Source: Patescibacteria group bacterium UBA6017
GTDB taxonomy: Bacteria > Patescibacteriota > Saccharimonadia > UBA4664
Direction: 5' to 3'
Length of the DNA: 64,000 nt
NCBI GenBank assembly: GCA_002429485.1
Contig: DIZX01000011.1
Location: 55,258 to 119,257 of the forward strand
Shown here: positions 10,345 to 49,779 of the stretch, piece after piece
Layout: each line of letters starts with the position of its first letter
Position numbering within the stretch: position 1 is the stretch's first letter
Notes under the pieces: generated by a model
What the model saw: the letters and a program-made list of their open reading frames with translations, nothing else
The model's database searches: none
What the model was told of the DNA's origin: nothing
Program-made: the position numbers and the translations under genes

Positions 10345-10833
10345 TTACTTTACGACCTCAAGCCCGTTGAACAGCTTGCGCCACTGCTCATCCGAAAGGT
10401 CGCGATCCGGCTTCACAAACATCAAAGTACCCTTCGCATTCATCACCGCCGCCTGCTTTCCCTTCAGATCCTTCGGCCGCGTGAGGTGGACCGTACCGCT
10501 ATCACTGTCGAATTTACTGTACTCGTTCATGTTCGTCACTACCTTGTCGTACACCTGCGGGATATCAATAAAACTTTCCGGGGTTGGCTGCTCGCTCACT
10601 ACTGTCTTAACTCCATACGCCGCAACTGTGAAGCTAAGCAATTTCAGCTTCGAATCATAGATCATCGAGTCTCTCGACACCTCAACCTCGCGCACCTGAG
10701 GCACCATAATCGTCGACGTCACCGCGCGCTTGATCTCCACCGGCACCGGTGGCTTTGGCGCCACCAACATCACCCCGATCACCACCAACCCGATGGTCAC
10801 CAAACTACCTATAATCAACCACAACCGTTTCAT
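10345..10833 (-). CDS. small N-terminally membrane-anchored protein, partner of giant protein A
   Basis: Start at MKRLWLIIGSLVTIGLVVIGVML (transmembrane anchor). The C-terminus DEQWRKLFNGLE resembles the C-terminus YDKWAKLLSSME of the ORF at 31260..31805, which likewise follows a giant gene. Confidence 0.5.
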   Translation of the reverse strand: MKRLWLIIGSLVTIGLVVIGVMLVAPKPPVPVEIKRAVTSTIMVPQVREVEVSRDSMIYDSKLKLLSFTVAAYGVKTVVSEQPTPESFIDIPQVYDKVVTNMNEYSKFDSDSGTVHLTRPKDLKGKQAAVMNAKGTLMFVKPDRDLSDEQWRKLFNGLEVVK

Positions 10834-10934
10834 GTAAGTAGCATAACATGACCCGATATATCGACGAACTTCTAGCGCCGCCAACTAGCGAATATTTATT
10901 TTTATCAGTTAAGGTACTGCCAGGCGTGAGGCGG

Positions 10935-13900
10935 CTACCTGATATTAAGTACAGTTGCTACAGAGCCACGGCAATCATCCGTAGCGGCCGTACAGGTGCT
11001 TGAGAAAGCGGATAGTGCTATTCCCAGCGAACCATATCCATTGGCTGGTGCCGGAATTGCAGCCGCCGTGACCGAATATCCGGCGTTCGTCGTTGCACTA
11101 GACTCCAAATTTTGCTGTATGCTCCCGGCGTCAGCCTTGACGAATGCAGGGCCGGCAGTAGCTATGATGGCGTTGATAGTGTTTGCGGTCGTACCTCCGG
11201 CCGTCACAATGAAGACCCCGCGCATACTTGCCAATCCCAGAGTAAGCGCCGGTCGAGTTACCGCTCCAAGCGTGGCGGTTTGTTGTGCGATCATACCCAA
11301 CGCCGCCGCTGTCGTGATGTTATTCACTAGCTCTTTTGTTGTAGTCGTAAATGTTCTGGTGTCATATATAGCAGTGATCTTAGAGCCGTTCACCTTTAGA
11401 TCTGCCAAACAGAGAATGGGTGCAGTAGTCGAGAATGTAGGCAAGTTATTAGTCTCGGACGTCCCGTCTAGTAGCTGTGGTTGATTTGTACTAGCCGTAT
11501 TCAAACAAACATGCGTAAAGTGTCCGGCCGTTAATGTCACTGTCTGATCGGCAGCCTGAGCTGGCACCACCACACGACGACCATTTGAGTATGCAGTGCA
11601 TCCAGTCCAACGAATCTTGGTATTTACCGATCCCAAGTATATCCTGCAGGGACCAGAGGCGGATAGCGTCCCATTCACTCCGACCCAGTCCCCCGGAGTA
11701 GTGCCGCTATCCGGTACTACTCCGAACATTATCAGCCCAGTGTCCTTAGTGGTCACGACGTCACTCCACGAACCATCTTCACACACCCGGACCGAGGGAG
11801 TATTCGTATTTGTGTTGTAATACAGCGCCCCCTGATTAGTCGTCGCATTACACGTCCCGGTATCGGCAAATACGTTCGATGAATCTAATTGCAGATTATT
11901 TTGGGTCGCATCAGCAGCAGTGGCCGAGCCTATCTGAACATTACCGCCCAAGATCGTGTCACCACCTTGAACGTTCAGGCGAGAAGTTCCGGCATCAGCC
12001 ACCCCGATGCCCACATTATCGATGTACGACACTGTTGGCTTCACAAAGGATGTGGTGTCGGTCGTGTAGACTGCCGAAGTATTCATATTCTCAGAAATAG
12101 CCGTTATGCTTCCAGGGTAACCATTAATGGCCTTTACGTCGATAAAGACATCATTCCCGGTCGATACCCGGTGGACGATCTGGATCCGGTAGCGCGAGTT
12201 GGTAGCATCCCAAGTGACATCCGAGATTGCAAAATTGGCCGATGTTGCACCAGATGCATCGCTATAGCGGGAATCGTTATGCCATATCGTACCCCCGGCA
12301 TTCAAACCCAGATAGAAGGTTTTCTGAACCGCACCACCGGCATCCTGATTGATATAGTTACTCGTTAGAGTGACCTCAATCTCCCCGGCAAACTGCGGTG
12401 CAAAATATAGGTCGAACTTCTGATTTGCCACCCCATTTGTAAACGATTTGGTAAAGGTTCGTTCGGCACTGACGCCGCCAACTACGAGCGCATTACCAAT
12501 ACTGACATTGCTGGTCGTCGTATCAACGTTCAACGCCGTAGACGAACCCGCGCCATTCTTGACCGCAAAAGCGGTGGCGGAGTCGAGGCCAGCGTTTGGC
12601 TGGACCAAGGCCGTTCCGGCGACTACTAAGTTAAGGTTATAAGCAGTGCCCCAAGTATTGACTGCATCGCCCGAGGTAATCCCCATGCGCAGTACTTGAT
12701 CGGTTACGTTTGAGTTCGGACCAATTCCCCAGTTGGCGTTACTTGGCCATTGGCCGGTTATCGAGGCATTTCCGGTCGCAGTCGTCGTCCAGTCATCCAT
12801 ATACAAGAAAGCCGGTGTAGTACTACCACTGGAACTACCGATATGCACTGCATTACCTCCGGTGTCGACCGAAAGAACATTGGCGCCCGATGCATTTTGC
12901 ACCGCAAAGGCGGTGGTGGAGTTACTCGCGTTTCTCACCCTCACATAGCCAGCCGTGGCCGCACCGCCGGTTCCGACCGATCCGCCAGCCAAGGTGATGA
13001 TACCGCCGGCACCGCCTAGGGTGGAGCCGTTACCACCGTTTCCGGCCGTCAGGTTAATGTTGGACCCAGCACCGCCGGTGCCATTGATAGCCGCGCCACC
13101 GTTACCACCCTGCAGTAATAGTGTGCCGGCCGCACCGCCCGTTTCACCACCACTAGCACCAGTGGCTGCCCCGCCGTTACCGGTGGTAAATGAGATGGCC
13201 GAACCGGCCCCAGCCGTAGCACCAGCGGTGCTCGTGGTAGCACCACCATTTGGGCCAAGTACGGTCAGGGCGGCCGTAGCGGCCGTGCCAGCACCGGCCG
13301 AAACAGCTGGAATTCCACCAGTGACATATAGCAAGGAGGCTGGTGAAGACGTACCAATACCTACCAAGCCTGCACTGGTAACTTGGAGACCAATTCGGTG
13401 AATCCGGTAAGCAATACCGGGGTTAGATGATACTGTTTGCGAAGTCGCAGTTGTCATCGTTGTACTGGTCGGAACAGTCAGGATAGTAGCTGTCTGGCCA
13501 GTCGCGAATATGAACTGCTCTCCTATCATAGCCGAGGTCCATGATGTGCCCACACCTGTAATGTTGGTAGTCGACTGATAAGCCGTGCCGGTGCTGTAAT
13601 CCAGCGGGGAGACACTAAAGGTGTTAAGCGGGATGGTTGTGCCGATACCAACGTTCGTTGCCGTATCAACCGAACCGAGCACGATACTATTGCTGGCCTG
13701 CACCTGGGCATAGGCACCGAGGGCGGTGGCGTTTTGGAGGGCAGCACCGGTGGCGAACTGGCCGCCGGAGTCTTGGAAGCCAGCTCTCCTACCTAAGGCG
13801 GTGTTATAGCTGCCGGAGGTATTGTTGCGCAGCGTATCATCGCCTACAGCAGTATTATAAGATCCGGAGGTATTCAATATCATTGAAGCATCCCCAAAAG

Positions 13901-16900
13901 CATTATTTGAGGAACCGATATTATTGGCCTGGAGAGCAAAAGTACCAAAGGCATTATTGTAGCTAGCAGTGGTATTGGCGGTGAGGCTATAAGCGCCAAG
14001 AGCGTTGTTGTGTTGACCAGTGGTGTTGGATGTCAGTGCAGACATACCTGTAGCCGTATTGTCGAAGCCGGTCGTGTTATTCAGCAGCGCGCCCCGGCCA
14101 ATGGCGGTGTTCTCATAGCCAGTCTGGTTAAATTGGAGTGCTCGGGATCCGAGAGCGGTATTGTAATTGCCGGTAGTGTTGGACTGCATACTGTAGCTGC
14201 CGATGGCAGTGTTCTCGAAACCAGTCGTGTTAGCCTGGAGCGTGATGTAGCCCAGGGCGGTATTGCGGTAGCCGGTGGCGTTAGCTTGCCCCGAGTTGAT
14301 GCCTATGAAGTTGTTGCTTGGGTCACTGCTAGCCCGGACTTCGATGTTAGCTACTCCACTGGCGTTCTTAACGGTCAAAGCCGAGTTGGTAATACCGGTA
14401 ATCTGTTTGATGGTGACCCCCGAAATAGTCCCCAGCCAGCTGCCCGTCGGGGTGAAGGACAGTTTGTTGGTGTTAACAGTGTTGACGACGTAGCTGTAGG
14501 TGCCATTACAGTTGTCTCCGGTGATGGCTACACCACCCAAGGTCTGGCCACCAATGGCGGCAGTAACTGATTGAGATGAGTTGCCACAGGCCGTCGGCGT
14601 ACTACTGATATTGAAGCTAACTTGGTATGTAGCCCCACTGGTGATGGCGGCCGTGGTGTTGGTGATGGTGGTTGTACCACTAGTGTGGGTAGCTTGAGTA
14701 GAGGTGGTCACATCCCACCCAGTGGTAGTTCCCCATTGGGTGGCGAAGTTGTTAACCCCCATGAGATCCGCACCTAGGGTGGCTGTGTCGGTACCGGCGC
14801 GTACGGTGAGGGTTTGGTTGGTGGTGTCGACGTTTACTACCGGAACGGCGGTGGCATTTTGAATCTGGAAGGATGTGGCGGAGTTTGAAGCTGCCTTCTG
14901 AGTATAATCACCGTTGAGCGAGATACCGGAGCCCTGAACCTTGAACAGGTTGTCAACTCCGCCGTTGCTGCTCGAGATACCAAAATAAGTGTTAGCGCTG
15001 ATGTCCAAAGTCGACATCACTACTTCGTTCACCCCCAGAGAAGTGACGTTCGTGAATGCCACGAAGGTTGGCGTAAACCACGCCTGCTCCGTAGGCTCAA
15101 TTGTGACATATGTGTTCGAGGCACCAGCACTCGTAGAAGATGCCCGAACATCAATATAAGTTAGATCAAGTACTGTATCGTGTACTACTCTCATCCGGTC
15201 ATAGTCAGAAGTACCATTCTGGTTCAACAGAGATACAGTAGCCGTCGACCCCCAGTCAGCCTGAACTAAGAAGGATCTTGAGTTTGGGGTCATCGTACCG
15301 CCAATAGTCGTCAAAGTAACCTTAGCGGCAAATCGGCCATTGTTGGTCGCTCTTGAAGCAATCCGGTACCAATTGCCGCTAGTATTAGTCTGTGCCACAA
15401 CTCCCGTACTTATCCCCTGTGTCAACAGAATGTCGCTGCTAGTCTGAGCTAGCGTACGATATTTCAGTACGCCGCTATCGTTCGTAACGAACCCGGTATA
15501 AGTAGCGTCATCGGCTGTTTGGGGTACAATCACGCTTCCCGCTACAGTATCGACCGATAAAATGGAGGTACCGGCCGCATTTTGGACCCGGAAAGCAGTG
15601 GTTGAGTCATTTCCAGTAGTAGGCTTCACAAGGGCCGTTCCGGCCACCAGCAGGTTAATGTTGCGGGTGGTACTCCAGTCATTGAGGTTATTGGTCCCGG
15701 TCACGCCAAGCCGCACAGTAGAGTCACCAGCATTTGAGTTAGACCCTAGCCCCCAGGAGTTCATGCTGTTCCATTGTCCTACAATGCTGGCGTTACCGGC
15801 GGCATTGCTACTAGCATCGTTCAGGAGTAAGTAAGCCGGTGTAGCAGTACCAGTGCTATTAATTCCAATAACTACCTTATTATTGGAAGTATCAACTGCG
15901 AGAACATTAGCAGCCGAGGCATTTTGGACTTGGAATGCGGTGACGGAATTGGTATTACTCTTAGCAATAATCGAAGCGCTGGCGCTATTGGTGCTTAAGT
16001 TTAAGTTGCCAGTCCCGGCGTTTACGTTGACGGCCGTTGCACCAGTGGTATTACCAAGAGTAATCGTGCCGACATTAGCCGTTCCGATACTTATTGCCCC
16101 GTTCGCCGTCGCGCCGGTACCGGCATCAATCACTACGTTACCGCCGGTGCGGGTACCACTCGCCCCGGTAGCGTTGCCGCCCTGTAGTGTCAATACACCA
16201 CCGACGGCAGTGGTAGTACCGCTTTCGTTACCAGCCCTAAGGGTCAGGGCTGCTCCGGTAGCTGCCGCCGAAGTATTATTCCCCGGCTGAAACACCAAGG
16301 CCGTCGGAGCCGTCCCGGCCAAGGTGGTAATGTCGGCCGTTTGGGCTCCCGCCAAGGTTAAGGCTCCCAGGTTGTCTATTTTGAACTTCGACACTCCGTT
16401 GGCCTGGAGGTCTAGGAAAGCCCCCGAGGCAAACGAGCCCGAACCGTTGGCTACGTTCACTAGCAAAGCCGTGCCGGTGTAGGCTGAGGTGGACTGGCTC
16501 ACACTCAGTAAGGTAGCGCTGGTGGCCCCGGTATTTGAGGTGGTGATGTTGCCCGCATTCTGGGTTTGCTGAATATCTACCGCCTGAGCCGCCGTGCCAC
16601 TCGTCCCCTTCACGGTCAGACCCACTACGCTGTTGACTGTCGGCGTAATGGTGTTTTGGGCAGTCGAGGTGGGGGCTTGGAGAATACACGTGATACAGGT
16701 GTTGGCCGACCCGGCGTTCACCGCGTACACTGCACTGCCTATCCGGCGCATCGGCAGCATTTCCCCGTCCGGCGTACAGCTCGAGAAGGGCGTGCAACTG
16801 GAAGTCGTGTTGGCGCCGCCCGCGATGTTCGTAGACAGCCACAGCACCGGCTGGTTGAGGTCAATCCCCACTAAAGTCGTGATTGAGCCCAAATTCACGG

Positions 16901-17279
16901 AGAAGTAACCGTTCTTCACTGTCACTCCGTTACTGGCATTATTTAACCATTCTTCAGTCCACTGCAAAGTACCAGCCGTGCTCTGACAATCTGGCAGGGT
17001 TGCACAGGCACTATCGGTGGCCACCAACCCATCACCATTCTTGTAGATCTTGAACTGCATATTGTAATTTCCATCAGCAACAACGGCCCCAGCCGCGTTC
17101 AGCAGCCGACCCTGGTAGTTCACTTTATTGTTGATGCCAGCGCTCGGGGCCACGGCCTGCGCCGGACTAGCCGGCACTATCCCACTCAAGCCAAATAGCC
17201 CGACCAGTGTCAGGAGCGGTGCTATACGTGAGATAAATGTTTGGACTCTTCGCCTGAAAATTAGGCTCGAAATGATCAC
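10935..17279 (-). CDS. giant secreted surface protein A (2114 aa) with YadA-head-like 14-residue repeats
   Basis: Signal peptide. Its N-terminal domain is shared with giant B (QGRL.NA.G..V.DGNYN.QFKIY...GTLQWTEEWL...NLGSIT). It has a long run of 14-aa N-T-A-x-G repeats (NTAIGSYSMQSNTTGNYNTALGSRAL...) and repeated NVLAVDTSNNKVVIGI-type segments. Confidence 0.75.
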   Translation of the reverse strand: MIISSLIFRRRVQTFISRIAPLLTLVGLFGLSGIVPASPAQAVAPSAGINNKVNYQGRLLNAAGAVVADGNYNMQFKIYKNGDGLVATDSACATLPDCQSTAGTLQWTEEWLNNASNGVTVKNGYFSVNLGSITTLVGIDLNQPVLWLSTNIAGGANTTSSCTPFSSCTPDGEMLPMRRIGSAVYAVNAGSANTCITCILQAPTSTAQNTITPTVNSVVGLTVKGTSGTAAQAVDIQQTQNAGNITTSNTGATSATLLSVSQSTSAYTGTALLVNVANGSGSFASGAFLDLQANGVSKFKIDNLGALTLAGAQTADITTLAGTAPTALVFQPGNNTSAAATGAALTLRAGNESGTTTAVGGVLTLQGGNATGASGTRTGGNVVIDAGTGATANGAISIGTANVGTITLGNTTGATAVNVNAGTGNLNLSTNSASASIIAKSNTNSVTAFQVQNASAANVLAVDTSNNKVVIGINSTGTATPAYLLLNDASSNAAGNASIVGQWNSMNSWGLGSNSNAGDSTVRLGVTGTNNLNDWSTTRNINLLVAGTALVKPTTGNDSTTAFRVQNAAGTSILSVDTVAGSVIVPQTADDATYTGFVTNDSGVLKYRTLAQTSSDILLTQGISTGVVAQTNTSGNWYRIASRATNNGRFAAKVTLTTIGGTMTPNSRSFLVQADWGSTATVSLLNQNGTSDYDRMRVVHDTVLDLTYIDVRASSTSAGASNTYVTIEPTEQAWFTPTFVAFTNVTSLGVNEVVMSTLDISANTYFGISSSNGGVDNLFKVQGSGISLNGDYTQKAASNSATSFQIQNATAVPVVNVDTTNQTLTVRAGTDTATLGADLMGVNNFATQWGTTTGWDVTTSTQATHTSGTTTITNTTAAITSGATYQVSFNISSTPTACGNSSQSVTAAIGGQTLGGVAITGDNCNGTYSYVVNTVNTNKLSFTPTGSWLGTISGVTIKQITGITNSALTVKNASGVANIEVRASSDPSNNFIGINSGQANATGYRNTALGYITLQANTTGFENTAIGSYSMQSNTTGNYNTALGSRALQFNQTGYENTAIGRGALLNNTTGFDNTATGMSALTSNTTGQHNNALGAYSLTANTTASYNNAFGTFALQANNIGSSNNAFGDASMILNTSGSYNTAVGDDTLRNNTSGSYNTALGRRAGFQDSGGQFATGAALQNATALGAYAQVQASNSIVLGSVDTATNVGIGTTIPLNTFSVSPLDYSTGTAYQSTTNITGVGTSWTSAMIGEQFIFATGQTATILTVPTSTTMTTATSQTVSSNPGIAYRIHRIGLQVTSAGLVGIGTSSPASLLYVTGGIPAVSAGAGTAATAALTVLGPNGGATTSTAGATAGAGSAISFTTGNGGAATGASGGETGGAAGTLLLQGGNGGAAINGTGGAGSNINLTAGNGGNGSTLGGAGGIITLAGGSVGTGGAATAGYVRVRNASNSTTAFAVQNASGANVLSVDTGGNAVHIGSSSGSTTPAFLYMDDWTTTATGNASITGQWPSNANWGIGPNSNVTDQVLRMGITSGDAVNTWGTAYNLNLVVAGTALVQPNAGLDSATAFAVKNGAGSSTALNVDTTTSNVSIGNALVVGGVSAERTFTKSFTNGVANQKFDLYFAPQFAGEIEVTLTSNYINQDAGGAVQKTFYLGLNAGGTIWHNDSRYSDASGATSANFAISDVTWDATNSRYRIQIVHRVSTGNDVFIDVKAINGYPGSITAISENMNTSAVYTTDTTSFVKPTVSYIDNVGIGVADAGTSRLNVQGGDTILGGNVQIGSATAADATQNNLQLDSSNVFADTGTCNATTNQGALYYNTNTNTPSVRVCEDGSWSDVVTTKDTGLIMFGVVPDSGTTPGDWVGVNGTLSASGPCRIYLGSVNTKIRWTGCTAYSNGRRVVVPAQAADQTVTLTAGHFTHVCLNTASTNQPQLLDGTSETNNLPTFSTTAPILCLADLKVNGSKITAIYDTRTFTTTTKELVNNITTAAALGMIAQQTATLGAVTRPALTLGLASMRGVFIVTAGGTTANTINAIIATAGPAFVKADAGSIQQNLESSATTNAGYSVTAAAIPAPANGYGSLGIALSAFSSTCTAATDDCRGSVATVLNIR
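13780..14330. repeat. roughly 42-bp periodic coding repeats (the YadA-head-like / Hep_Hag-like 14-aa repeat array) inside giant gene A
   Basis: About 13 iterations of an N-[TY]-A-[LIA]-G ... [AS]-N-T-[TS]-G unit in the translation. Coordinates are approximate. Confidence 0.5.
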
Positions 17280-17372
17280 TTCTCACATATAGCTTATGCT
17301 ACATATAATATCAAAATGAATAAGTATACACAAGCATTAACACCTGTCAAAACTTGTTATTTTGAGCTGACA

Positions 17373-18329
17373 TCACACGCCCTGGACGTTCTGCTTTCTA
17401 AGCTTGCTAATCTCCCGCCGTTCGCCGAGCCAGAAGAAAATTACCATCACCAATGCCAACAGATACAGCGGCCAAGCTGTGAGTAAAATCCCCGGCAATG
17501 CCCCCAGTCCTTCACCCTTGGTTCCCCCCGATGAATTCACCGGGCCGTTCACTACCGTAATCATTTGCAGGAAAGCTCCGTTGCCCTGCGCATCCGTGAC
17601 CCGCAAAATCACCCGATACGTCCCCGGCCGATCATACACATGCTTACTTGCCACTTGACCGTCTGCACCCTGGCTCACCAGCGTGGTATTACCGTCGCCC
17701 CAATCCCAACTCACCGCGTACGGCGGAACACCGCCCACGATCGTCGCCGAACGACCCGCCTCCTGGCCTGGATTCACCCCGAGCACAGTAGTACTGACCT
17801 CCAGAAACAACTGACGTCCAGTGGAGCCGCCGGGTAAATTCAAGCTTGGTGCGTCATAAAACACGTTGACTGCCGCCGAATCGGGCCCAAACTGCCCCAA
17901 AGCATCCGACACCTTAGCAACCAGCACATTTGAACCATCAAATAAATCAATTAGTAACGAAAATGTACCATCGGTATCGCACGGCGTCACGCCGCCAAAT
18001 ACGCCATTCTTCGTAATATTCACAAACGTATTTGCCGGACATGTCCCGGAAACGGTAATCGGAATGGTGCCCGTACGAGTGCCGGTACGCGGGCTCACAA
18101 TCACCGCCGCCGTAGTCGGTGCCGGACCCCTCACTGTCCCGCTCAATCCCACCGAACCCGACTGCGGATTCACCGCCGGAGTTGCTGCCTGAGTGGCCAG
18201 GCTCGAACCGAGCAATAAAATGCCTACCAAAATCAAGGCAAAAAACAACCCGGGATACGAGGTATGGCGATGGTGCCGTACCTTCCCGGAATGTTCATGG
18301 GGCACGAGCTGTAGTAAACCGGCTTTCAT
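17373..18329 (-). CDS. PKD-domain membrane protein with two transmembrane helices
   Basis: N-terminal and C-terminal hydrophobic helices. PKD signature WDWGDGNTT...HVYDRPGTYRVILRVTDAQGN. The tail WLGERRE is shared with the ORF at 47016..47996. Confidence 0.65.
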   Translation of the reverse strand: MKAGLLQLVPHEHSGKVRHHRHTSYPGLFFALILVGILLLGSSLATQAATPAVNPQSGSVGLSGTVRGPAPTTAAVIVSPRTGTRTGTIPITVSGTCPANTFVNITKNGVFGGVTPCDTDGTFSLLIDLFDGSNVLVAKVSDALGQFGPDSAAVNVFYDAPSLNLPGGSTGRQLFLEVSTTVLGVNPGQEAGRSATIVGGVPPYAVSWDWGDGNTTLVSQGADGQVASKHVYDRPGTYRVILRVTDAQGNGAFLQMITVVNGPVNSSGGTKGEGLGALPGILLTAWPLYLLALVMVIFFWLGERREISKLRKQNVQGV

Positions 18330-18352
18330 GCCTTTAGTTTAGCACAAACGTA

Positions 18353-20416: not shown

Positions 20417-20443
20417 GCTATGTTTGTTTCCGTTATGCTTGTT

Positions 20444-41630: not shown

Positions 41631-42698
41631 TTAGCGTCTCCGCAGCCGCTTCAAGCGATGCGTTACGCGCCGCAAGGTTCCGCGAACCATCAGGTACACT
41701 CCCAATCCCACCAGCACGACCACTACGAGCACCGCCAGCAAGAAGCGCCAGGGTATCACCCAGAACGTCAGCGTCGCCTCAATCGGGACGTCATTGTGCC
41801 CGTTGTCGTACACCGCAAAGAGCTCAGCCGTGTATTTGCCCATCCGGATCTTACTAAACGGATTGTTACCGCCGGCATTCCAGCTCAACGCCTGAACCTG
41901 GTGGCCTTTATTGTCGATTTTTACGCTCCCGTTCACGAGCACATCCTGAAACGCCGGGTAGCCGTCGGTCCACTTCGCTGGGAAAATACGTACTGATTGC
42001 GGCAGAATATTTCCCCCGCCGGCATTGATCGGCAGCACCCCTATTTGTTTCCCGTTCTGTTTTATAAATACATCACCGTGTGGCACTGCGTGGACATTAC
42101 CGGTGTTATCCAGGCTCACATTGAAGGAACTTGGCAAAAACTCATAGATCCGATGAATAGATGCAAACGATTTCAAGACGAGAGTTCGGTTAGCATTCGG
42201 ATTGCGCGCTTCCAGCAACACCAGTACGGCTGTCGCGCCGGCGATCGAGTTGGTCCGGTTGTCGCGGTGAACATCGTCGCCCACTCTGGAAAACACCGCC
42301 GCATAGTAGTATCCGAACGCTGCGGTTTTCGGCAAGCTGATCGTCATATGCACCGTCTGCCAAACATTGGCGGGGGCGTCAAACTCTGTCTTATCAAACT
42401 TCACCCACTTCACGAACTCGTCGCCCGGCTCGGGATCCATCAGTTTCGGCTTGCCCTGATCCCCAAACGCCCCAAATTTCTGCAGCTTCACTTGCAGCTT
42501 CGCGTCGCCCGGCCCTGCCTGCTTCACCCGAATATCTGTCGTCACAGTTGTTCCTGGATCTGCTACCAAACTAATCGGCAGCGGCGACGTCTCCAGGACC
42601 AGCGGATGCAAATCATCCGCGGCTATTGCCGTTGCCGGCCCCAGCAAACTGCTAAAAGCCAAACATAAACTTATAACCCCTAATACAACACGCTTCAT
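41631..42698 (-). CDS. membrane-tethered protein with two Ig-like domains (Ig-TM3)
   Basis: Signal peptide. FGYYYAAVFSRV...IAGATAVLVLLEAR. C-terminal transmembrane segment plus RRVTHRLKRLRRR. It is contiguous with 40674..41630. Confidence 0.55.
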   Translation of the reverse strand: MKRVVLGVISLCLAFSSLLGPATAIAADDLHPLVLETSPLPISLVADPGTTVTTDIRVKQAGPGDAKLQVKLQKFGAFGDQGKPKLMDPEPGDEFVKWVKFDKTEFDAPANVWQTVHMTISLPKTAAFGYYYAAVFSRVGDDVHRDNRTNSIAGATAVLVLLEARNPNANRTLVLKSFASIHRIYEFLPSSFNVSLDNTGNVHAVPHGDVFIKQNGKQIGVLPINAGGGNILPQSVRIFPAKWTDGYPAFQDVLVNGSVKIDNKGHQVQALSWNAGGNNPFSKIRMGKYTAELFAVYDNGHNDVPIEATLTFWVIPWRFLLAVLVVVVLVGLGVYLMVRGTLRRVTHRLKRLRRR

Positions 42699-42707
42699 TG
42701 AATTTGC

Positions 42708-43808
42708 CTAAAAATTACCCGCACCGACAACCGTTATGGAATCGGTATAATCTGTACCTGCCGGCGTCACCCCTGAGATGGCTGCGCGCTCGGTCATCGT
42801 TATCACATCCCCGTTGGCCGTTCCGGTTGGCGGCGTACCGCTTGTGCCGGTGCAGGACCCAATTGGCTGATACGTGCTCGCTAGCGTTCCGCCCGACCTC
42901 GTCGGCTGCGCCTGTGTAGTGCCGTCATAATCAGCATTAATACCCACTATACAACCATCTGTAGCGTCGGTGGTCAAAAGTACGTCCATCACGAATCCCT
43001 CGACACCGGGAACCAGCTGTGTACTCAGGCTGTCACCTACGGTACCTGTGGTCGGTAGCGTATAAGATGCGGCCGCCGAATGCAGACCCTGATACAGGTC
43101 CTTGGCCCAGGCGATCCACCCCCCTTTGGCGTTCGTGATAAAGGTCGAGGTCACGCCGGAGGTAGACACCACCGACAGCGGATCGAGGTTCGTTGTAAAA
43201 CTATCGGTATAACCGCTCAGCGTCATAATGAATGACGGCGGAACCACCGCGGTGATCACAATGGTATCGTCGGTGTTATTGGCCAGCGCAATCGGAGTCT
43301 GATCAATCGTGGCATTACCCGAATCTTGCGTCGTTATCGATGCCTGCTGGCTGTTAGCCGCCGCCACCGCGGTAGTTGCCGTACTCACCGCCGCAAAATT
43401 GAAGCAGTAGAGCGTCGATGAGCTCGCTAGGTCGGTCGAGGGGAAAATCGCTGTATGCGCCCCGTTATTCACTGCAGTAGCAGTTGCAATGCCAGGCCAA
43501 GCTGTGGCGCCAGTTGGTAAGTTTGTAGTAGTTACAGTCCAGTTGGCGGCAGTTGTGTTGAGAGTATATGTCGTCGGGAACGTGATCATAATATGAGCTT
43601 CGGTCGAAGCCAGGTTTACGACCGACGGTTTCGCACACACCATACCGCCGGTAGCCGTATTCACCTTCATCCTATCGAGACGTAGAAACGCTTCCTGAAA
43701 CTGAGCTGCAGCATCAGCACTACTAGGCAGAAAAGGTGCCGCGGCACTGAGGATCAGTACAACGATAACTACAACACGATACGGTAAGCGCTGGCTCCAG
43801 CTATGCAT
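42708..43808 (-). CDS. secreted SCPU/Csu-pilin-like protein (P5)
   Basis: Signal peptide. Cys-containing N-terminal region (GGMVCAKPSV). The C-terminus PAGTDYTDSITVVGAGNF is identical over the last 16 aa to P6. Confidence 0.55.
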   Translation of the reverse strand: MHSWSQRLPYRVVVIVVLILSAAAPFLPSSADAAAQFQEAFLRLDRMKVNTATGGMVCAKPSVVNLASTEAHIMITFPTTYTLNTTAANWTVTTTNLPTGATAWPGIATATAVNNGAHTAIFPSTDLASSSTLYCFNFAAVSTATTAVAAANSQQASITTQDSGNATIDQTPIALANNTDDTIVITAVVPPSFIMTLSGYTDSFTTNLDPLSVVSTSGVTSTFITNAKGGWIAWAKDLYQGLHSAAASYTLPTTGTVGDSLSTQLVPGVEGFVMDVLLTTDATDGCIVGINADYDGTTQAQPTRSGGTLASTYQPIGSCTGTSGTPPTGTANGDVITMTERAAISGVTPAGTDYTDSITVVGAGNF

Positions 43809-43916
43809 CTAAACTCCATCACACTAACTAACTGGTATCAGTGTATCGGAAGCATAAGAAGCATGCAAGGAGATTTATTGTCGCTGTCTTCAGCTTATTC
43901 GATCGTCGGCTCGCTC

Positions 43917-45077
43917 CTAGAAGTTACCTGCCCCGACAACCGTTATCGAGTCGGTGTAGTCGGTACCGGCAGGCGTACCACCACGGATCACGGCCCGCTC
44001 TACGAGATTCAAGATGTCGCCGTCGGACGTGGCCGGAGTTGCACCGGTGCAGTTGGCGATTGGCTGGTAGGCCGTGTTGTCGAGCACACCGCCTCCGAAG
44101 CCGGTCAGACTGCCATAGGCAGCGTCGAGGCCCACTGTGCACCCGGCGGCAGCGTCGGTATTGATCGTTACATCCATCACGTAGCCTTCACGACCCACAC
44201 CGCCGCCACTCGGAATGAGGTCAAAGAACGGGTTGCCCACAACTTTTGTCTGCGTCGGATATGGGTTCATGAGACCGGAGGCAATTGTGTAACTGCTCGT
44301 TACAGAATGCAGCCCAGCATACAGATCCTTGGCCCAGGCGATCCAACCTCCTGGTGCGTTGGTCGAGATGGTAGCGGTGCGGCCGGCAGTCGACACTATC
44401 GCTGTCGGGTCAAGGTTGGTAGCAAATGCATCTGCGTAGCCATCAAGTGCCAAGGTAAAGTTCGGAGGTACCACCGCGCTCACCACAATCGTATCGTCAG
44501 TAGTTACAGTGTAGGCCCAGTTGGTTTGGTTCGAGATCGTAGGCCCAGCCGAATCCTGAGCGTACAATGTACCGCCCGTGATGCCCGTTGAGCTCACAGC
44601 CGACCCATTTGTCAGCACCGCCGCTCCGGCCAGAGTCAGCCCGGCAACTTTGAAGCAGACCTGGCCGCCGGCTACCGTGAGGTCGCCCGATGCGAAAGTT
44701 ACGGTGTGACCGCTCACGCTAGTAGCATGTGTGGTGCCCGAAGTCATACCCGGCCAAAACGTCGACCCTGCAGGCAAGTTGTCATTCCAGGCGGTCCAGT
44801 TTGCCGCCGTCGAGTTAAGCGCGAAGTCGGTCGCGCCGGAGTCGGTCGGTATTACGATCACAACCTGATTTTCTGTTACGCCGGTGGTAGCCGCAGTCGG
44901 TGTAGCGCATACAGTCAAAGCCGTACCGGTCAATGCCTTAAACCTATCCGGACGCACAAACGCCTGTGCGAACACTGGCGGAGCAGCGCTAGCCGTACCT
45001 ACTAAGATTGGTACCGCTAATTCTGCTACTAATGCTGCTACGGCAGCTACTATTAACTTGATTTTTGGTTTGTTCAT
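43917..45077 (-). CDS. secreted SCPU/Csu-pilin-like protein (P6)
   Basis: Paralog of P5 (ALTVCATP...; C-terminus PAGTDYTDSITVVGAGNF). Confidence 0.55.
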   Translation of the reverse strand: MNKPKIKLIVAAVAALVAELAVPILVGTASAAPPVFAQAFVRPDRFKALTGTALTVCATPTAATTGVTENQVVIVIPTDSGATDFALNSTAANWTAWNDNLPAGSTFWPGMTSGTTHATSVSGHTVTFASGDLTVAGGQVCFKVAGLTLAGAAVLTNGSAVSSTGITGGTLYAQDSAGPTISNQTNWAYTVTTDDTIVVSAVVPPNFTLALDGYADAFATNLDPTAIVSTAGRTATISTNAPGGWIAWAKDLYAGLHSVTSSYTIASGLMNPYPTQTKVVGNPFFDLIPSGGGVGREGYVMDVTINTDAAAGCTVGLDAAYGSLTGFGGGVLDNTAYQPIANCTGATPATSDGDILNLVERAVIRGGTPAGTDYTDSITVVGAGNF

Positions 45078-45084
45078 TTGGTTT

Positions 45085-45145
45085 GACTTTTTCTTGCGTT
45101 TTTAATGCGTTTTTTCTTGGACTTTTATTTGGGTTTTTTCGTTGT
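45085..45145. promoter_or_regulatory. helically phased T-tracts (predicted curved DNA) upstream of P6
   Basis: Five T4-6 tracts centred at about 45091, 45101, 45113, 45126 and 45137, spaced 10-13 bp apart and including gcgttttt repeats. They lie immediately 5' of the P6 start on its coding strand as A-tracts. Confidence 0.35.
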
Positions 45146-45232
45146 TGAAAATACTTACGCTAACTTTACCCCGAGCCCTCGGGTCGTGTCAACTATATTT
45201 ACAACACTTTTATCCACAAGCACTTTAGCCAA

Positions 45233-46300
45233 CTAGAAACTCGCACTAGCAATCGCAGTCATCACCTCTGCGTAGTCCGCCGATGCTGGTGTCAGGGGCT
45301 TGGTTTTGGCCGACATAATGAATGATCCGCGACCGCCCACGATCGGCGCACCGGTCGAATTAAAAATCTGCCGAATCAAGGAATCTTCCACCCCTACGTT
45401 CGTACCGCTCACGTTGTATGGTGAATCGAGAGCCAATGGTCCGCCCGAAGTTTGGGCAATGCTAGCCCCCTGCAACCCAAAACCTTCCGCCAGACTGGCC
45501 AGGTCGCCGGTTTGGGCGGCGATTGTATAGGTGGCATCTGCACTCCTCAGTCCCGCGTTCTGACCGCTCACATATACCATGCCGCCAGATTCGGCATTGG
45601 TATCCAAACTTATCCACACCCGCATCGACGAATTCGTTACCGTGCTCACCGGGATCGTGCCAAAGTCCACCACATACGGCGGGCTGGTGCTGATATTTGT
45701 GGCTGCCACATCAATATCAAACGACAATTGGGGATCAACCGTGCTAGCGCTCGCGACCGGCCCATAACCGCTCTCGGTGAACTTACCGCGATAGGCCTTG
45801 GCTTTCACGGAATACACCGTGCTCTTCGTGAGTCCGCGCACAATCACGCCCGAGCTCCCGCCCCACGCCGCATATGTCTGATAATCACTGAAACTCAAGC
45901 TCGAGCCGACCGTGAGATCACTGTGCACGTATTGAGTGGTCGTAAAGCCGTCGGTCGAAATTGCCACCGCAAACAACGCGTCACTGGGGTTGTTCTCCGG
46001 GCCGACCGTCACCCGCAGCTTGTTGTACCAACTGCCGGTGTCGTTGGCAATGGTGATCGTCGGCACGTTCGCCTGCTTAACATAATTTTCACCCGCGCCC
46101 ACTTTGTAATTACTCGACGCCGCCGAACCCGACACCTCACCGGTCAAACCGTTTACGTGGTAGTTCGTCGAGCCGCTATCTGCCGTACCGCCATTACCAA
46201 AACCATATGAATTGAGCTGAAAATTCGTACTAGCGGGTAAGCCGGCCACGAGCCATCCTGTCAGTGTCCAGGCAATCCAAACACTGCTCATGACGTCCAC
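45233..46300 (-). CDS. secreted FN3-like plus SCPU-like protein (P7)
   Basis: N-terminal hydrophobic signal. FN3-like segment (PTITIANDTGSWYNKLRVTV...SVKAKAYRGKFTESGYGP). The C-terminus ADYAEVMTAIASASF follows the family motif. Confidence 0.45.
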   Translation of the reverse strand: MDVMSSVWIAWTLTGWLVAGLPASTNFQLNSYGFGNGGTADSGSTNYHVNGLTGEVSGSAASSNYKVGAGENYVKQANVPTITIANDTGSWYNKLRVTVGPENNPSDALFAVAISTDGFTTTQYVHSDLTVGSSLSFSDYQTYAAWGGSSGVIVRGLTKSTVYSVKAKAYRGKFTESGYGPVASASTVDPQLSFDIDVAATNISTSPPYVVDFGTIPVSTVTNSSMRVWISLDTNAESGGMVYVSGQNAGLRSADATYTIAAQTGDLASLAEGFGLQGASIAQTSGGPLALDSPYNVSGTNVGVEDSLIRQIFNSTGAPIVGGRGSFIMSAKTKPLTPASADYAEVMTAIASASF

Positions 46301-47019
46301 CTCACCGAGCCGGAAATAACTTTCATGAAGGCTGCCACATCATCCGTAACATCCGTACTTGTGACTGAAATCATCAGTAATTTACCATCGCGAAGCCAAA
46401 ACAAAGTTTGCTCGGTCTTATCATTTTTGGCCATCACGTACACCGATCCCGCCGCATTTTTGTACACAGCTTCCTTATACGTTTCCGGATGGAGCTGACG
46501 TATACGATAGCTGGCATCGTCGCTGAGGGTAGCGATCTGCTCCCGCCTCACGTCCACCGCTATCAAGCGCCGATAGTTACTCTTCGACCCAATGTTAAAC
46601 TGCTCAATCGAGCCGCTATCCGTTTTCATCCCCGCCACTTGATCAAAAATACGCGGGTAGTTAAATGCGAATGTCTGCCCCACGAGCTGCGAGATTGACT
46701 GGTCGGGCGTTGGCGCAGCAGCGTTCACGCTGATTCTCGGCTTCGGGAGACTCGCTTCGGCCGGACCGTTCACCAGCTTCATCATCACTATGATCGCTCC
46801 GCCGACCATTACGCCCATCACTAGCATGGCTGAGCTCCAGGCAACCCTGTGTGCCCAGCCGCGTTTTTTTGGCTCCGCCGCGTTGTCCGGTGCCGCCTCC
46901 TGGCCGTCAGACTCAGGATCCTCGCCCATAACCTCAGCCACTACCTCGCTGGTCGACTCCCCGCGTAATGTCGCTAAATGCCGTACAACCTGATGCAGTT
47001 CCTCATCGCTTAAGCTCAT
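46288..47019 (-). CDS. single-pass membrane protein, possibly a regulator or assembly factor
   Basis: Acidic cytoplasmic N-terminus, one transmembrane segment (AMLVMGVMVGGAIIVMMKLV), then a roughly 150-aa ectodomain. It overlaps the stop of 47016..47996 by 4 nt. Confidence 0.45.
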   Translation of the reverse strand: MSLSDEELHQVVRHLATLRGESTSEVVAEVMGEDPESDGQEAAPDNAAEPKKRGWAHRVAWSSAMLVMGVMVGGAIIVMMKLVNGPAEASLPKPRISVNAAAPTPDQSISQLVGQTFAFNYPRIFDQVAGMKTDSGSIEQFNIGSKSNYRRLIAVDVRREQIATLSDDASYRIRQLHPETYKEAVYKNAAGSVYVMAKNDKTEQTLFWLRDGKLLMISVTSTDVTDDVAAFMKVISGSVRWTS

Positions 47020-47996
47020 GCCAGTGCCTCGAGACGGCGTTCCATGATTTGCTTCTCCCGCCGCTCACCGAGCCAAAACGAGATAATCATGAGCAGCAGC
47101 ACGATCCAAAGCGGCCAGATCATCAGCAGGTTAGTAATACCGGTGGGGTTGGAATTTCCGTTACCCGCCGCAGCGGTCGAACCAGTCGCCGGGTTCACGA
47201 TAGTCGTCAGCTGCAAGTAAGCCGTATGCCCCGCCGCGTCTGCCGCCCGGATGATCAACGGGTATGACCCTAAATATCCTCCAACCTTCTGATATGTGTG
47301 CCTCGCTGTAAACGGGCCCGGCGCCAGCCGTGTCACCACATCGGTGGTACCGTCGCCCCAATCAATACTCACCGCATATGGCGCTTGCCCGCCAATAATA
47401 ACAATCGGCCACACGATCTCTTGCCCCGGCGACACCCCGCGGTAAAAATTTTCAGACTGTACAATGAGCTCAGTTGAATACCCCGGGCCACCTGGCGGCA
47501 TATTCAGCGTAACGGTAACCGTCGGCGACGTCGGTCCTGCCTGATCAAGCGTGTTAAACGGCAATGCCGTCAGATCATTGCGGCCGATTACGAGGTCTAT
47601 CGGGATGCTAAAGTGCCCGTTCTGACAGATTATACTGCCCACCAGAATACCGTTCGTAAATATCTTCACCAATGAAGCGCTCGGACAGGTCCCCGTAACC
47701 GTAACCGGGTTAATCGTGAAGGTTTGGCCGCTCGTCGGCGAGGTAATTACCGCCGCGCTCGCTGGCCTGGGACCCGGCACGACGGCCGATACCGCATATG
47801 CATTTGGGACACAATTGTTGCCGGCCTCCCCGCACAACGCCCCCATTGGAGGTGCCGCCAGGGCCGCCCACGTAAAGCTTGCGAGCAGCACACCCAGCCC
47901 CAATGTCAGAAACAACAGGAGCGAATATGAAGTCTGACGGTGGTGAACCAACCGCCCGGTAAGCGAATTGTGACTAGTCCTCGGAAACACAAGCAT
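47016..47996 (-). CDS. PKD-domain membrane protein with two transmembrane helices, paralog of 17373..18329
   Basis: IDWGDGTTDVV...HTYQKVGGY PKD signature. Same WLGERRE tail after the C-terminal transmembrane segment. Confidence 0.6.
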   Translation of the reverse strand: MLVFPRTSHNSLTGRLVHHRQTSYSLLLFLTLGLGVLLASFTWAALAAPPMGALCGEAGNNCVPNAYAVSAVVPGPRPASAAVITSPTSGQTFTINPVTVTGTCPSASLVKIFTNGILVGSIICQNGHFSIPIDLVIGRNDLTALPFNTLDQAGPTSPTVTVTLNMPPGGPGYSTELIVQSENFYRGVSPGQEIVWPIVIIGGQAPYAVSIDWGDGTTDVVTRLAPGPFTARHTYQKVGGYLGSYPLIIRAADAAGHTAYLQLTTIVNPATGSTAAAGNGNSNPTGITNLLMIWPLWIVLLLMIISFWLGERREKQIMERRLEALA

Positions 47997-48029: not shown

Positions 48030-48584
48030 CTACCGGTTTATAGGCCGTATCACGCCTACGCCTTGGATCGCCGCCTCAGCCTGAGCTACCAGACCCGAGG
48101 CAACCTCCCCGCCCGTGCAGGTACCGAGCGGCATCTGGTAAACAAAGTCGCTACCGCCGACATTAGCCAAGAATACCTTCGTCTGACCGCCCGAAGGGTA
48201 ATGGGCAAAGCTCCCCGCCGACAGCCGTAGGATCGACCCCAGCGCATTAGCCTGCGCGCTGCACTTGGCATCGAGACCGGACAATGCCGCACTCGATAAT
48301 CCAACGCTATCAGATCCCTTACCCGCATAGTTTACCAGCGGCATGTCCTCGCCTAATGGCAAAACTAATTGAACATTCCAACTCCCGATAGTCAGTACCT
48401 GCGAACCATTCCCGTCCGCTACCGCCTCTACGGCCGGTATGCGCACATCATCGGCCGACACCTGATGGAACCTTTCAAACGCAGCAGCTGCCACCGTGAA
48501 CGCAAGCGCCACGCCTATAGCCACAAACAATACCGGAACCAATGACCGAACGGCTACTAATTTTCGAGACACAACTCGTAACAC
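48030..48584 (-). CDS. N-terminally anchored exported protein
   Basis: Likely GTG start at 48584 with a GAGG ribosome binding site. Transmembrane segment LVPVLFVAIGVALAFTVAAAAF. The ORF-track extension to 48671 would overlap the divergent gene. Confidence 0.4.
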   Translation of the reverse strand: MLRVVSRKLVAVRSLVPVLFVAIGVALAFTVAAAAFERFHQVSADDVRIPAVEAVADGNGSQVLTIGSWNVQLVLPLGEDMPLVNYAGKGSDSVGLSSAALSGLDAKCSAQANALGSILRLSAGSFAHYPSGGQTKVFLANVGGSDFVYQMPLGTCTGGEVASGLVAQAEAAIQGVGVIRPINR

Positions 48585-48654
48585 CTCAACCTCACTATGG
48601 TTGATTAGAGCATACCAGTTTGTAAGCCAGAAGCACAAGCAGTATTCTAGGTGT

Positions 48655-49779
48655 ATGGCCGACGAACCCAAACCTCAAACCGCTGACCAACCGACGCCCA
48701 ACCCGGCGCCGGAATCTTCGGCTGTCTCGCCGGGCGTTACCGATGCCGTAGAGACCAAACCCGAAGGCAGCTCAGCGGCTGCAGCCGATGATGCCCCCAA
48801 ACCTCAGGTAGTCCCCGCCGATCCGCTGGCTGACGGCACCGTTCCCACAGTCCTTGCTACCGGCACCAGCCACAAGTCGGTCTCCAAAGGTAAAGCCTCG
48901 ATCGCGAATATCTACCGCAAAGCCGATATTCTCACCACTATCCTCACCTTCGTGGGTGCCCTCGTTGCAGCCGGCATAATTTTTGGTATCTACGCCTACA
49001 TTACCCGCTCCAAAAACACCGCTACGCCCGCCCCCAAAGTCACCAGCCTCGACAAGAACGAGCTCGCCAAACTCAGCACCTTTTTCGACGGCAACTCCGC
49101 CGGCAGCTCCAGCCAGGTCCTCACCATTAGCTCTTCATCGTTCTTCAAGAACCGCGTCGCCATATCTTCCGACCTCAAGGTCATCGGCGGAGTGCAAGTC
49201 TCCGGCACTACCGCCCTCGGTGACCTCACCGTCGACAAAACCACCACCCTTGGCGTCACCAATATTCGCGGCCAGCTGGTGGTAGCCGGACCGGTCAACT
49301 TCCAGAGCCCGGCTCAGTTCGGCGCCGGCGGCACCGTAAACGGCAACCTAGCCGTCACCGGTAACGGCAGCTTTGGCGGTTCAATTTCCGCCGGCACCCT
49401 CAATGTCTCTACCCTCTCCGTCAACACTATCAACCTAAGTGGCCACCTTTCAATTACGGGCTCCAGCCCGTCGGTCGCGGGCACCGGCCTCGGTACTAGC
49501 GCTACCGTCGATGGCAACGACTCCTCCGGCACCGTCAGCGTCACCGTTGGCGCCTGTACTAACGGACAATGTATTGCTACGGGCGGCCAGCTCGTCATCA
49601 TTACCTTCCACAGCGCATATCCGCGCTTGCCGCATATCATCATTTCCCCCATTGGTGCCGGCGCCGCCCGCCTCCAGGCCTACGTCCAGCCTGGCGCTAG
49701 CTCGTTCACGATTGGCGCCGCTTCCATCAATAACCCCAGCCCAAACACATTCTCGTTCACTTACTGGGTCGTGCAGTAA
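48655..49779 (+). CDS. type-II membrane protein with beta-helical repeats, paralog of 25040..25963
   Basis: Start at ATG 48655, preceded by AGCACAAGCAGTATTCT. Pro-rich cytoplasmic N-terminus, a transmembrane segment, then repeat and C-terminal domains homologous to 25040..25963. Confidence 0.55.
   Translation: MADEPKPQTADQPTPNPAPESSAVSPGVTDAVETKPEGSSAAAADDAPKPQVVPADPLADGTVPTVLATGTSHKSVSKGKASIANIYRKADILTTILTFVGALVAAGIIFGIYAYITRSKNTATPAPKVTSLDKNELAKLSTFFDGNSAGSSSQVLTISSSSFFKNRVAISSDLKVIGGVQVSGTTALGDLTVDKTTTLGVTNIRGQLVVAGPVNFQSPAQFGAGGTVNGNLAVTGNGSFGGSISAGTLNVSTLSVNTINLSGHLSITGSSPSVAGTGLGTSATVDGNDSSGTVSVTVGACTNGQCIATGGQLVIITFHSAYPRLPHIIISPIGAGAARLQAYVQPGASSFTIGAASINNPSPNTFSFTYWVVQ

Follow-up and report, generated by a model that had tools for sequence, protein, structure and literature searches.

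Host contact is the presumed function of Pam pili, fibres of epibiotic and parasitic bacteria of the Candidate Phyla Radiation (CPR) that were identified only in 2026, in a single organism. In Candidatus Mycosynbacter amalyticus, cryo-electron microscopy (cryo-EM) at 2.8 and 3.6 Å shows filaments of PamA and PamB, two-domain pilins whose inter-domain linker fills in the C-terminal domain of the following subunit (bioRxiv 10.64898/2026.03.03.709456). The operon also encodes the FimC/PapD-like chaperones PamC and PamD, which keep a C-terminal transmembrane (TM) helix, as well as PamE, the third pilin, PamT, a tip of one domain, and PamR, an RbmA-like anchor with a TM segment; two pilin classes are seen within single filaments, and the authors conclude that trans-envelope machinery is not needed (bioRxiv 10.64898/2026.03.03.709456). 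Here, we analysed a 64,000 nt stretch of contig DIZX01000011.1 of Patescibacteria group bacterium UBA6017, a member of the Saccharimonadia (the whole stretch is called the window, and all positions refer to it). The window carries two gene modules, A and B, which we identify from their sequences as Pam-type operons. By analogy with the M. amalyticus filaments we propose, with a probability of about 80 %, that both modules build fibres that assemble by donor-strand exchange and are anchored by PamR.

Two other kinds of system invite comparison. In the WxL clusters of Firmicutes, the WxLIP protein combines DUF916 and DUF3324 with a C-terminal TM helix and has a signal peptide and two immunoglobulin-like (Ig) domains, and one of its strands is predicted by AlphaFold2 (AF2) to complete the beta-sandwich of a WxL protein (PMC10599100; PDB 9i1y). 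In classical and archaic chaperone–usher pili (Pap/Fim, Csu), truncated Ig-like subunits are completed by a donated strand, and the tip subunit has no donor strand.

In the open reading frame (ORF) listing and its translations, the cell-surface stretch spans ~39 kb between ParA/ParB (8107-9833) and a 99-aa ORF at 49842-50141, read by eye as ribosomal protein bL21; every ORF of the original prediction was found there at the position given for it. Both modules lie on the minus strand. Module A (17373-24928) encodes, in order of transcription, subunits of 269 and 390 aa, a TM protein with two Ig domains, subunits of 362 and 343 aa, another two-Ig TM protein and, last, an Ig/PKD protein that has a TM helix at its C-terminus. 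Its genes, with the gene upstream of it, are as follows.

17373-18329, minus strand: PamR A, anchor/terminator with Ig and PKD domains (NF058578 CPR_pilus_PamR, 298.8 bits, E 3e-89)
18353-19345, minus strand: chaperone A1, with signal peptide, two beta-sandwich domains, C-terminal TM helix and basic tail (PamC/PamD-like, WxLIP-like)
19385-20416, minus strand: two-domain Pam pilin A1 (NF058581 Pam_pilin_C, 165.7 bits, residues 196-343)
20444-21532, minus strand: two-domain Pam pilin A2 (NF058581, 133.1 bits; 46 % identity to pilin A1)
21609-22640, true start probably 22595, minus strand: chaperone A2, an extra copy with 61 % identity to A1 (BLAST E 1.6e-133 to A1; PF06030 E 0.0049)
22885-24057, minus strand: two-domain Pam pilin A3, the most divergent of the three (NF058581, 84.7 bits)
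24119-24928, minus strand: PamT tip subunit A, a Gly-rich N-terminus followed by a pilin C-terminal domain (NF058579 CPR_pilus_PamT, 213 bits, E 4e-63)
25013-25963, plus strand: type-II membrane protein with Gly/Thr/Asn-rich repeats, divergent from module A (TM 41-59)

Three models of NCBIfam release 20 carry the identification of module A. PamR A covers positions 2-294 of the 297 positions of NF058578 ('pilus system RbmA-like protein PamR'; equivalog cut-off 300 bits), PamT A spans positions 5-241 of 241 of NF058579 ('CPR-type pilus protein PamT'; equivalog cut-off 240 bits), and the pilins match NF058581 ('Pam pilus system pilin subunit, C-terminal domain'; cut-off 55 bits). PamT A also matches NF058581 (130 bits, residues 103-269) and is without the N-terminal domain or linker of the pilins, while the linker of pilin A1 (residues 175-186) is among its most conserved segments. 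PamR A additionally matches Pfam PKD and Glucodextran_B, and has hydrophobic segments at residues 27-45 and 281-299, the latter being the C-terminal TM helix. Judged by its PamR, PamT and Pam_pilin_C matches, module A is a canonical pam operon and a new member of the known Pam pilus system. The parts list is that of M. amalyticus, in the order PamT, pilins, chaperone, PamR (as judged from the order of accessions in the preprint), with two-domain pilins that have a conserved linker, TM-anchored two-Ig chaperones, an Ig/PKD TM anchor and a Saccharimonadia host.

The original prediction of an usher-less pilus, with membrane-tethered two-Ig chaperone-like proteins and donor-strand interactions, therefore matches a system that has since been described, and its statement that no characterized system combined these features is out of date given the preprint and the models NF058578, NF058579 and NF058581. 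Its remark that the window holds neither an usher-sized barrel nor a sortase was borne out by Pfam and NCBIfam scans of every protein of the ~39-kb stretch, and is a further likeness to Pam. The pilin-like subunits end in Phe or Tyr, as had been noted (...ASF, ...GNF or ...GTY), and have no LPXTG motif and no TM segment. Sortase-assembled pili of the Gram-positive type would call for a C-terminal sorting signal with its TM segment and for a sortase, and with none of these in the window we consider such pili extremely improbable here.

The locus also differs from that of M. amalyticus. Its genes form two separate operons that both encode a PamR and a tip, none of the pilins is of the size of the 55-kDa PamA, and the flanking genes encode giant proteins, whereas ATP synthase genes flank the operon in M. 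amalyticus. The chaperone of module A is duplicated. The corresponding operon of the nearest relative (L001:4728-10957) encodes PamT, three pilins, one chaperone and PamR, and because only one type A chaperone is present there, chaperone A2 looks like a lineage-specific, seemingly recent duplicate inserted between the pilins.

Module B (40674-47996) encodes, again in order of transcription, an Ig protein that has a TM helix, a type-II membrane protein of 243 aa, subunits of 355, 386 and 366 aa, and then both two-Ig TM proteins.

40674-41630, minus strand: chaperone B1, with two Ig-like domains, TM helix and basic tail (hhalign to module A chaperones 100 %, E 7e-42)
41631-42698, minus strand: chaperone B2 (BLAST E 1e-25 to chaperone A1; hhalign 100 %; TM 320-338)
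42708-43808, minus strand: type B two-domain pilin B1 (AF2 model with a predicted local distance difference test score, pLDDT, of 92.5; hhalign to type A pilins)
43917-45077, minus strand: type B two-domain pilin B2 (47 % identity to B1, E 3e-89; linker motif DDTIVVSAVVPP in common with B1)
45233-46300, minus strand: putative type B tip, with a Gly-rich N-terminus like that of PamT, an additional middle domain and the C-terminal domain of a pilin
46288-47019, minus strand: type B-specific type-II membrane protein of 243 aa (TM 65-83; present in 9 of 9 type B loci)
47016-47996, minus strand: PamR B, the first gene of the operon (NF058578, 289.1 bits, E 3e-86)
48655-49779 (ORF from 48496, likely start 48655), plus strand: type-II membrane repeat protein, divergent from module B and homologous to 25013-25963

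That the two modules are paralogous, as originally proposed, holds directly for most of their parts. The Ig/PKD anchors, each with an N-terminal hydrophobic segment and a C-terminal TM helix as predicted, share 40 % identity (BLAST E 6e-58). The four two-Ig proteins of about 320-355 aa, two per module, were confirmed to have a signal peptide, two beta-sandwich domains, a TM helix (residues 284-302 in chaperone B1) and a basic tail, and all are mutually homologous (BLAST E 1e-9 to 1e-133, hhalign 99.5-100 %; E 1e-25 to 1e-13 across modules). The divergently encoded type-II membrane proteins upstream of the two modules were likewise found to be related (BLAST E 7e-27). For the pilin and tip subunits the claim stood only at the level of profiles, since BLAST gave no match between those of module A and those of module B and profile–profile comparison alone links them. 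With alignments built from database hits, hhalign joined type B and type A pilins at 82 % probability; with the more diverse families derived from related loci, the value rose to 97.7 % (E 1.4e-12) over 304 co-linear columns, covering the full length. The type B pilin family is large: at 50 % identity it counts 774 representatives, and for 328 of these the E value lies below 1e-30.

The N-terminal part of the 355-aa protein aligns with PamT (hhalign 96.9 % over 60 columns; NF058579, 29.6 bits, residues 10-76) and its C-terminal domain with that of the type B pilins (97.3 %). These matches, together with the extra middle domain, identify it by sequence as the type B tip. Compared with M. amalyticus, module B has its PamR gene first and its two chaperone genes last, encodes the extra 243-aa membrane protein, for which Pfam, NCBIfam and PHROG gave no family match, and has a tip with an inserted domain and pilins that lie outside the NCBIfam model. 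On this comparison we regard module B as a diverged and rearranged second Pam-type operon that is not captured by current curated models, and it probably builds a fibre distinct from that of module A.

Both tips start with Gly-rich repeats that hold S-x-N-Y/F, in three copies in the type B tip, and the middle domain of the latter is strongly conserved. N-terminal to their first hydrophobic segment, both PamRs share the conserved motif HHR.TSY, which points to a cytoplasmic or signal-anchor feature that is conserved and that the preprint text does not discuss. Some members of the type B pilin family (P0385, P0389, P0392 and P0395) are 784-1641 aa long and have a complete C-terminal pilin module behind a large N-terminal region with its own signal peptide. 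It is possible that these are adhesin–pilin fusions that are built into the fibre.

To place the two operon types, a genome scan with both PamR sequences was used to collect 55 related loci, and their ORFs were classified against the window proteins. The titles of these loci are nearly all Saccharimonadia, Saccharibacteria or 'bacterium', and the homologue searches returned hundreds of proteins, the few with an organism name belonging to Candidatus Saccharimonadia; M. amalyticus is absent both from the 55 loci and from the named protein matches. Type A operons occur in ~40 loci, with a divergent repeat protein, PamT, one to four pilins, one chaperone, PamR and often then a giant protein. The type B operon is present in nine loci (L013, L014, L015, L023, L024, L045, L047, L054 and, in a variant order, L051), with the layout divergent repeat protein, PamR, 243-aa protein, large tip, two pilins, chaperone B2, chaperone B1 and giant. 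The nearest relative, whose PamR shares 87 % identity, has the two types on a single contig of 24.7 kb, arranged relative to each other as they are here (L001, L045). NF058581 was matched by 100 of the 127 subunit family members from the related loci, a number equal to that of the type A pilins and PamTs scanned.

The linker between the two pilin domains was of particular interest. In the AF2 model of pilin B1 there are two beta-sandwich domains, and residues 179-192 between them are without strand pairing in the monomer. This segment, DDTIVITAVVPP, is among the three most conserved 12-residue windows of the family; the remaining top windows of the type B pilins lie in the C-terminal domain, and the type A pilins follow the same pattern. 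Conservation of the linker and C-terminal domain in this way is also reported for the described Pam pilins (bioRxiv 10.64898/2026.03.03.709456), and it is this conservation that argues here for donor-strand exchange. The type B linkers contain the motif [STA]AVVP, conserved in all type B loci. Among 26 window proteins checked, it occurred in three: the linkers of both type B pilins and, at residue 70, PamR B, where the copy YAVSAVVPGP directly follows the N-terminal hydrophobic stretch. The type B tip has no AVVP motif. The copy in PamR B fits, at the level of sequence, the published model in which an N-terminal strand of PamR plugs the last pilin. As PamR B has the type B and not the type A linker motif, module B appears to be a self-contained assembly line.

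This observation bears on the possibility that only module A builds a pilus and that module B serves another role, for example the display of a single adhesin, or feeds its subunits into the module A fibre. Such a division of labour would accommodate the failure of the type B pilins against the NCBIfam pilin model, the different gene order with its extra conserved membrane protein, the large passenger domains of some family members and the coexistence of two pilin classes within single M. amalyticus filaments. Module B, however, supplies every part for itself (PamR, tip, two pilins and two chaperones), in a set kept as a unit in nine loci, and its PamR carries the linker motif of its own pilins. 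We therefore consider it unlikely that module B does not form a fibre of its own.

Under our preferred reading, in which each module builds its own PamR-anchored fibre, assembly would proceed as follows. All components would be exported through Sec, judging from their N-terminal hydrophobic segments. The fold and homology of the two-Ig chaperones suggest that these would be tethered by their C-terminal helix to the outer face of the cytoplasmic membrane, and would there cap the incomplete C-terminal Ig-like domain of pilins that have just been exported. The pilins would then polymerize by donor-strand exchange, the linker of one subunit completing the C-terminal domain of its neighbour; this step is established by cryo-EM for PamA/PamB in M. 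amalyticus, and is suggested here by NCBIfam membership, profile homology and the conserved linker. PamT in module A, or the larger tip in module B, would occupy the distal end, because it has an acceptor domain but no linker. Finally, PamR is predicted to end growth and anchor the fibre, its N-terminal strand imitating a pilin linker and its C-terminal TM helix holding the fibre in the membrane. Neither an usher nor a sortase would be required.

The chaperones were compared with known families by sequence and by structure. The AF2 model of chaperone A1 (pLDDT 88.1) consists of two beta-sandwich domains and a helix at residues 294-329. Structural matches of this model are listed with their scores.

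EfmWxLIP1 of Enterococcus faecium (9i1y): 13.2, rank 1, 165 residues aligned
YadV: 11.4
FimC: 10.9
SafB: 10.8
CfaA: 10.7
CsuC: 10.5

At the sequence level, the window chaperones match Pfam WxLIP_PGBD (PF06030, DUF916) weakly and below threshold (E 0.005-0.11, the highest value being that of chaperone B1), each match spanning nearly the whole domain. Among 58 diverse members of the chaperone family, 39 match PF06030 (best E 6.8e-9), so that the original prediction was right to allow for DUF916-like proteins as an alternative to PapD-like chaperones; PapD_N and PapD_C, which it had proposed first, gave no Pfam match with either the window chaperones or the 58 family members. DUF3324 did not match the chaperones. 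When the 58-member profile was searched against the PDB, EfmWxLIP1 was the sole match that covered a whole domain in a single stretch (E 0.07) and no chaperone of chaperone–usher systems was found; the top matches, to 'Pizza' propellers, were rejected as artefacts of summed repeats. PDB sequence searches with single proteins and with three profiles returned nothing or one chance match. On sequence grounds, DUF916-like appears to be the best description of the chaperones. The preprint mentions neither WxL nor DUF916 (bioRxiv 10.64898/2026.03.03.709456).

The same searches speak to the original labelling of the subunits as spore-coat-protein-U-like (SCPU) pilins, and to the explanation that these are archaic chaperone–usher pili of the Csu/SCPU type whose usher is encoded elsewhere. 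The locus does share with chaperone–usher pili truncated Ig-like subunits that would be completed by a donated strand, and a tip without such a strand. However, the SCPU label found no Pfam support at E<=10 in the seven pilin and tip proteins of the window, SCPU (PF05229, E<=1), Fimbrial and WxL matched none of the 127 subunit family members, and PapD_N/C and Usher were absent from the window proteins and from the 127 and 58 family members. The chaperones are membrane-anchored, the Saccharimonadia are without an outer membrane (by the preprint and general knowledge), many unrelated Ig folds outscore CsuA/B, and the donor strand would be an internal linker between two domains and not an N-terminal extension. 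We regard chaperone–usher pili as a very remote prospect for this locus.

The original prediction also proposed that a chaperone segment might supply the missing strand of the pilins. This segment, GGHFGVVRF...VALSASVGALILLKV, comprises the last two strands of domain 1 of chaperone A1 (residues 137-148 and 162-171), in the position of the PapD F1-G1 hairpin, and its high conservation makes it a reasonable candidate donor strand. Between subunits, though, the published filaments use the pilin's own inter-domain linker, and by analogy the F1-G1-like segment could act only in a transient chaperone–subunit complex. A conserved loop of chaperone A1 modelled with low confidence (residues 83-113) is a second donor candidate.

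The likeness to WxL clusters raises the further alternative of a WxL-type surface complex without a filament, in which the WxLIP homologues would hold strand-complemented surface proteins permanently at the envelope, on the lines proposed for the WxL clusters of Firmicutes, and no polymerization would occur. The PF06030 matches, the single whole-domain PDB match, the identical architecture and the predicted completion of the WxL sandwich by a WxLIP strand (PMC10599100) all favour it; a monoderm host without an usher is common to both systems. Against it, a WxL cluster has at least two proteins with the WxL domain (PF13731), and no WxL domain or motif occurs in the partner proteins of this locus (0 of 127 subunit homologues). 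The chaperones have no DUF3324 match, and what is described for WxL proteins is binding to peptidoglycan at the surface and not the formation of filaments. The subunits have the Pam_pilin_C domain, known from proteins for which filaments have been demonstrated, and the conserved inter-domain linker and its mimic in PamR argue for exchange between subunits. We consider a complex of this kind improbable. Because the subunits show no WxL domain, the link between the chaperones and WxLIP is one-sided, and we treat it as a lead.

Several points weigh against the proposal that both modules build donor-strand-exchange fibres. The scores of the two PamRs (298.8 and 289.1 bits) and of PamT (213 bits) lie slightly below the NCBIfam equivalog cut-offs, although by sequence the homology is still unambiguous. 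NF058581 was matched by none of 18 type B pilins from the window and the loci, the fold matches of the pilin B1 model are generically Ig-like, and the window chaperones have no NCBIfam match and Pfam matches that are all sub-threshold. The likeness to Pam derives from NCBIfam and the description in the preprint, not from alignment to PamA-E of M. amalyticus or to 25PZ/25QA, and strand complementation, both of pilin by chaperone and of pilin by pilin, is drawn from homologues. The system is known here from its genes; the filaments were seen in M. amalyticus.

The remaining genes of the ~39-kb stretch lie around and between the two modules.

10345-10884, minus strand: small type-II membrane protein, 3' of the 2114-aa giant gene (TM 23-41; no Pfam or NCBIfam family match)
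10935-17279, minus strand: giant surface protein of 2114 aa, directly downstream of module A (no Pfam or NCBIfam match)
25953-26558, minus strand: cytoplasmic IS200-like Y1 transposase homologue (PF01797, E 9e-12)
26600-31201, minus strand: Kelch-repeat (beta-propeller) surface protein of 1533 aa (Pfam Kelch_1, E 4e-36, and related Kelch families)
31260-31805, minus strand: small membrane-anchored protein (hydrophobic segment 1-19; no NCBIfam match)
31837-39726, minus strand: giant surface protein of 2629 aa, downstream of module B (Pfam CBM_4_9, E 1e-13, two stretches)
39791-40663 (ORF from 39653, likely start 39791), plus strand: DUF2207 membrane protein (PF09972, E 2e-18; C-terminal TM 302-320)
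48030-48671, minus strand: small membrane protein upstream of module B (hydrophobic segment 34-52; homologues at the same position in L023 and L024)

Three giant fibrous proteins had been predicted. Two of them are related through an N-terminal domain of ~190 aa (42 % identity, BLAST E 3e-37), whereas the third is the Kelch beta-propeller repeat protein. The giant N-terminal domain (about 190-200 aa) follows pam operons in 18 related loci; it has the pattern IN..NFQG...G.Y..FK.Y...WTE...DGEM.P..R, with a highly variable remainder of ~1100-2600 aa, and in most of these loci the giant gene begins ~100-350 bp past the end of the operon. A homologue of the 2629-aa protein follows the last chaperone in six type B loci (L014, L023, L024, L045, L047 and L054), and a Kelch protein is encoded downstream of a giant gene in L009, L011 and L012. 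Kinship of the giant N-terminal domain with the pilins was rejected, the 14-column hhalign match being judged spurious. The giants may be counterparts of the 'tail fibre-like protein' for which the preprint reports co-localization.

The divergent repeat membrane protein lies upstream of the operon in most related loci, and upstream of PamR in type B loci. That encoded at 25013-25963 had no match in Pfam, NCBIfam or PHROG, and its one match in the PDB, a phage baseplate protein, was insignificant (E 0.22). Across the giants, the repeat proteins and the small membrane proteins, Pfam, NCBIfam and PHROG found Kelch, CBM_4_9 and DUF2207 alone. The conserved gene positions suggest that the giants, the Kelch protein, the divergent repeat proteins and the 243-aa protein belong to the same cell-surface apparatus. 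The giants are probably adhesins of the same host-contact apparatus, putatively linked to the pili.

Nearly all genes of the stretch encode an N-terminal hydrophobic segment or TM helix. The claim that all of them do so fails on the cytoplasmic Y1 transposase homologue, which lies between the gene upstream of module A and the Kelch gene. Homologues of this gene adjoin pam loci in L003, L018 and L043, and its product may be a domesticated or REP-associated enzyme and not that of a mobile insertion sequence. The region had been called an island, but it is not obviously mobile: module A adjoins parA/parB also in L006 and L029, from other Saccharimonadia, and both operon types keep their relative order in the nearest relative. 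These two observations identify the locus as a stable chromosomal neighbourhood of the clade, and the GC content gave no signal that contradicts this. Between ParA and the surface genes, a 130-aa protein (9865-10257, minus strand) has tandem VSGL[AS]TK[DG]ELQVA repeats, no signal peptide and no Pfam match.

Of the flanking genes originally named, ParA, IleS, FtsZ and FtsA were found, the right flank running from the bL21-like ORF through a HAD hydrolase and FtsW/RodA to IleS, FtsZ and FtsA. The T-box named with them, directly upstream of ileS (55328-55476, minus strand), remained sub-threshold, scoring 23.8 bits where the gathering score is 93 (E 0.005 when 1 kb was searched). No Rfam match in the window reached the gathering threshold, and the window contains no tRNA genes. 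Promoter and terminator scans of the window gave counts at chance level. Near-consensus −35/−10 pairs on the minus strand at 17323-17350, 24078-24107 and 45163-45192, in the gaps before the 2114-aa gene, pilin A3 and pilin B2, could be internal promoters, with promoter-like sites overall no commoner than in shuffled sequence.

Any claim to a new mechanism is pre-empted by the preprint (bioRxiv 10.64898/2026.03.03.709456). What the window adds is a Saccharimonadia lineage in which two complete Pam operons, diverged from each other, lie side by side, with a gene for a giant surface protein after each. The type B pilins and all four chaperones escape the current curated models, so that annotated genomes will under-report the system. 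We further suggest, tentatively and at somewhat less than even odds, that the Pam chaperones belong to the DUF916/WxLIP superfamily and are not relatives of PapD, and that the type B operon represents a distinct, undescribed class of Pam pilus. Such a class would be marked by an operon that starts with PamR and encodes a membrane factor of 243 aa, by an enlarged tip and a pair of diverged chaperones, and by pilins that current models do not cover. If the chaperone assignment is true, the Pam pili of the CPR and the WxL clusters of Firmicutes would both be branches of a single ancient system, free of ushers and belonging to bacteria that have no outer membrane, in which a TM-anchored chaperone completes incomplete beta-sandwich subunits by strand donation, and WxL clusters might likewise assemble by strand exchange. 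The link in sequence and structure between the chaperones and WxLIP thus gives usher-less donor-strand assembly a testable evolutionary origin. For the organism itself, the presence of two Pam operons points to two specialized fibres or to an expanded host range.

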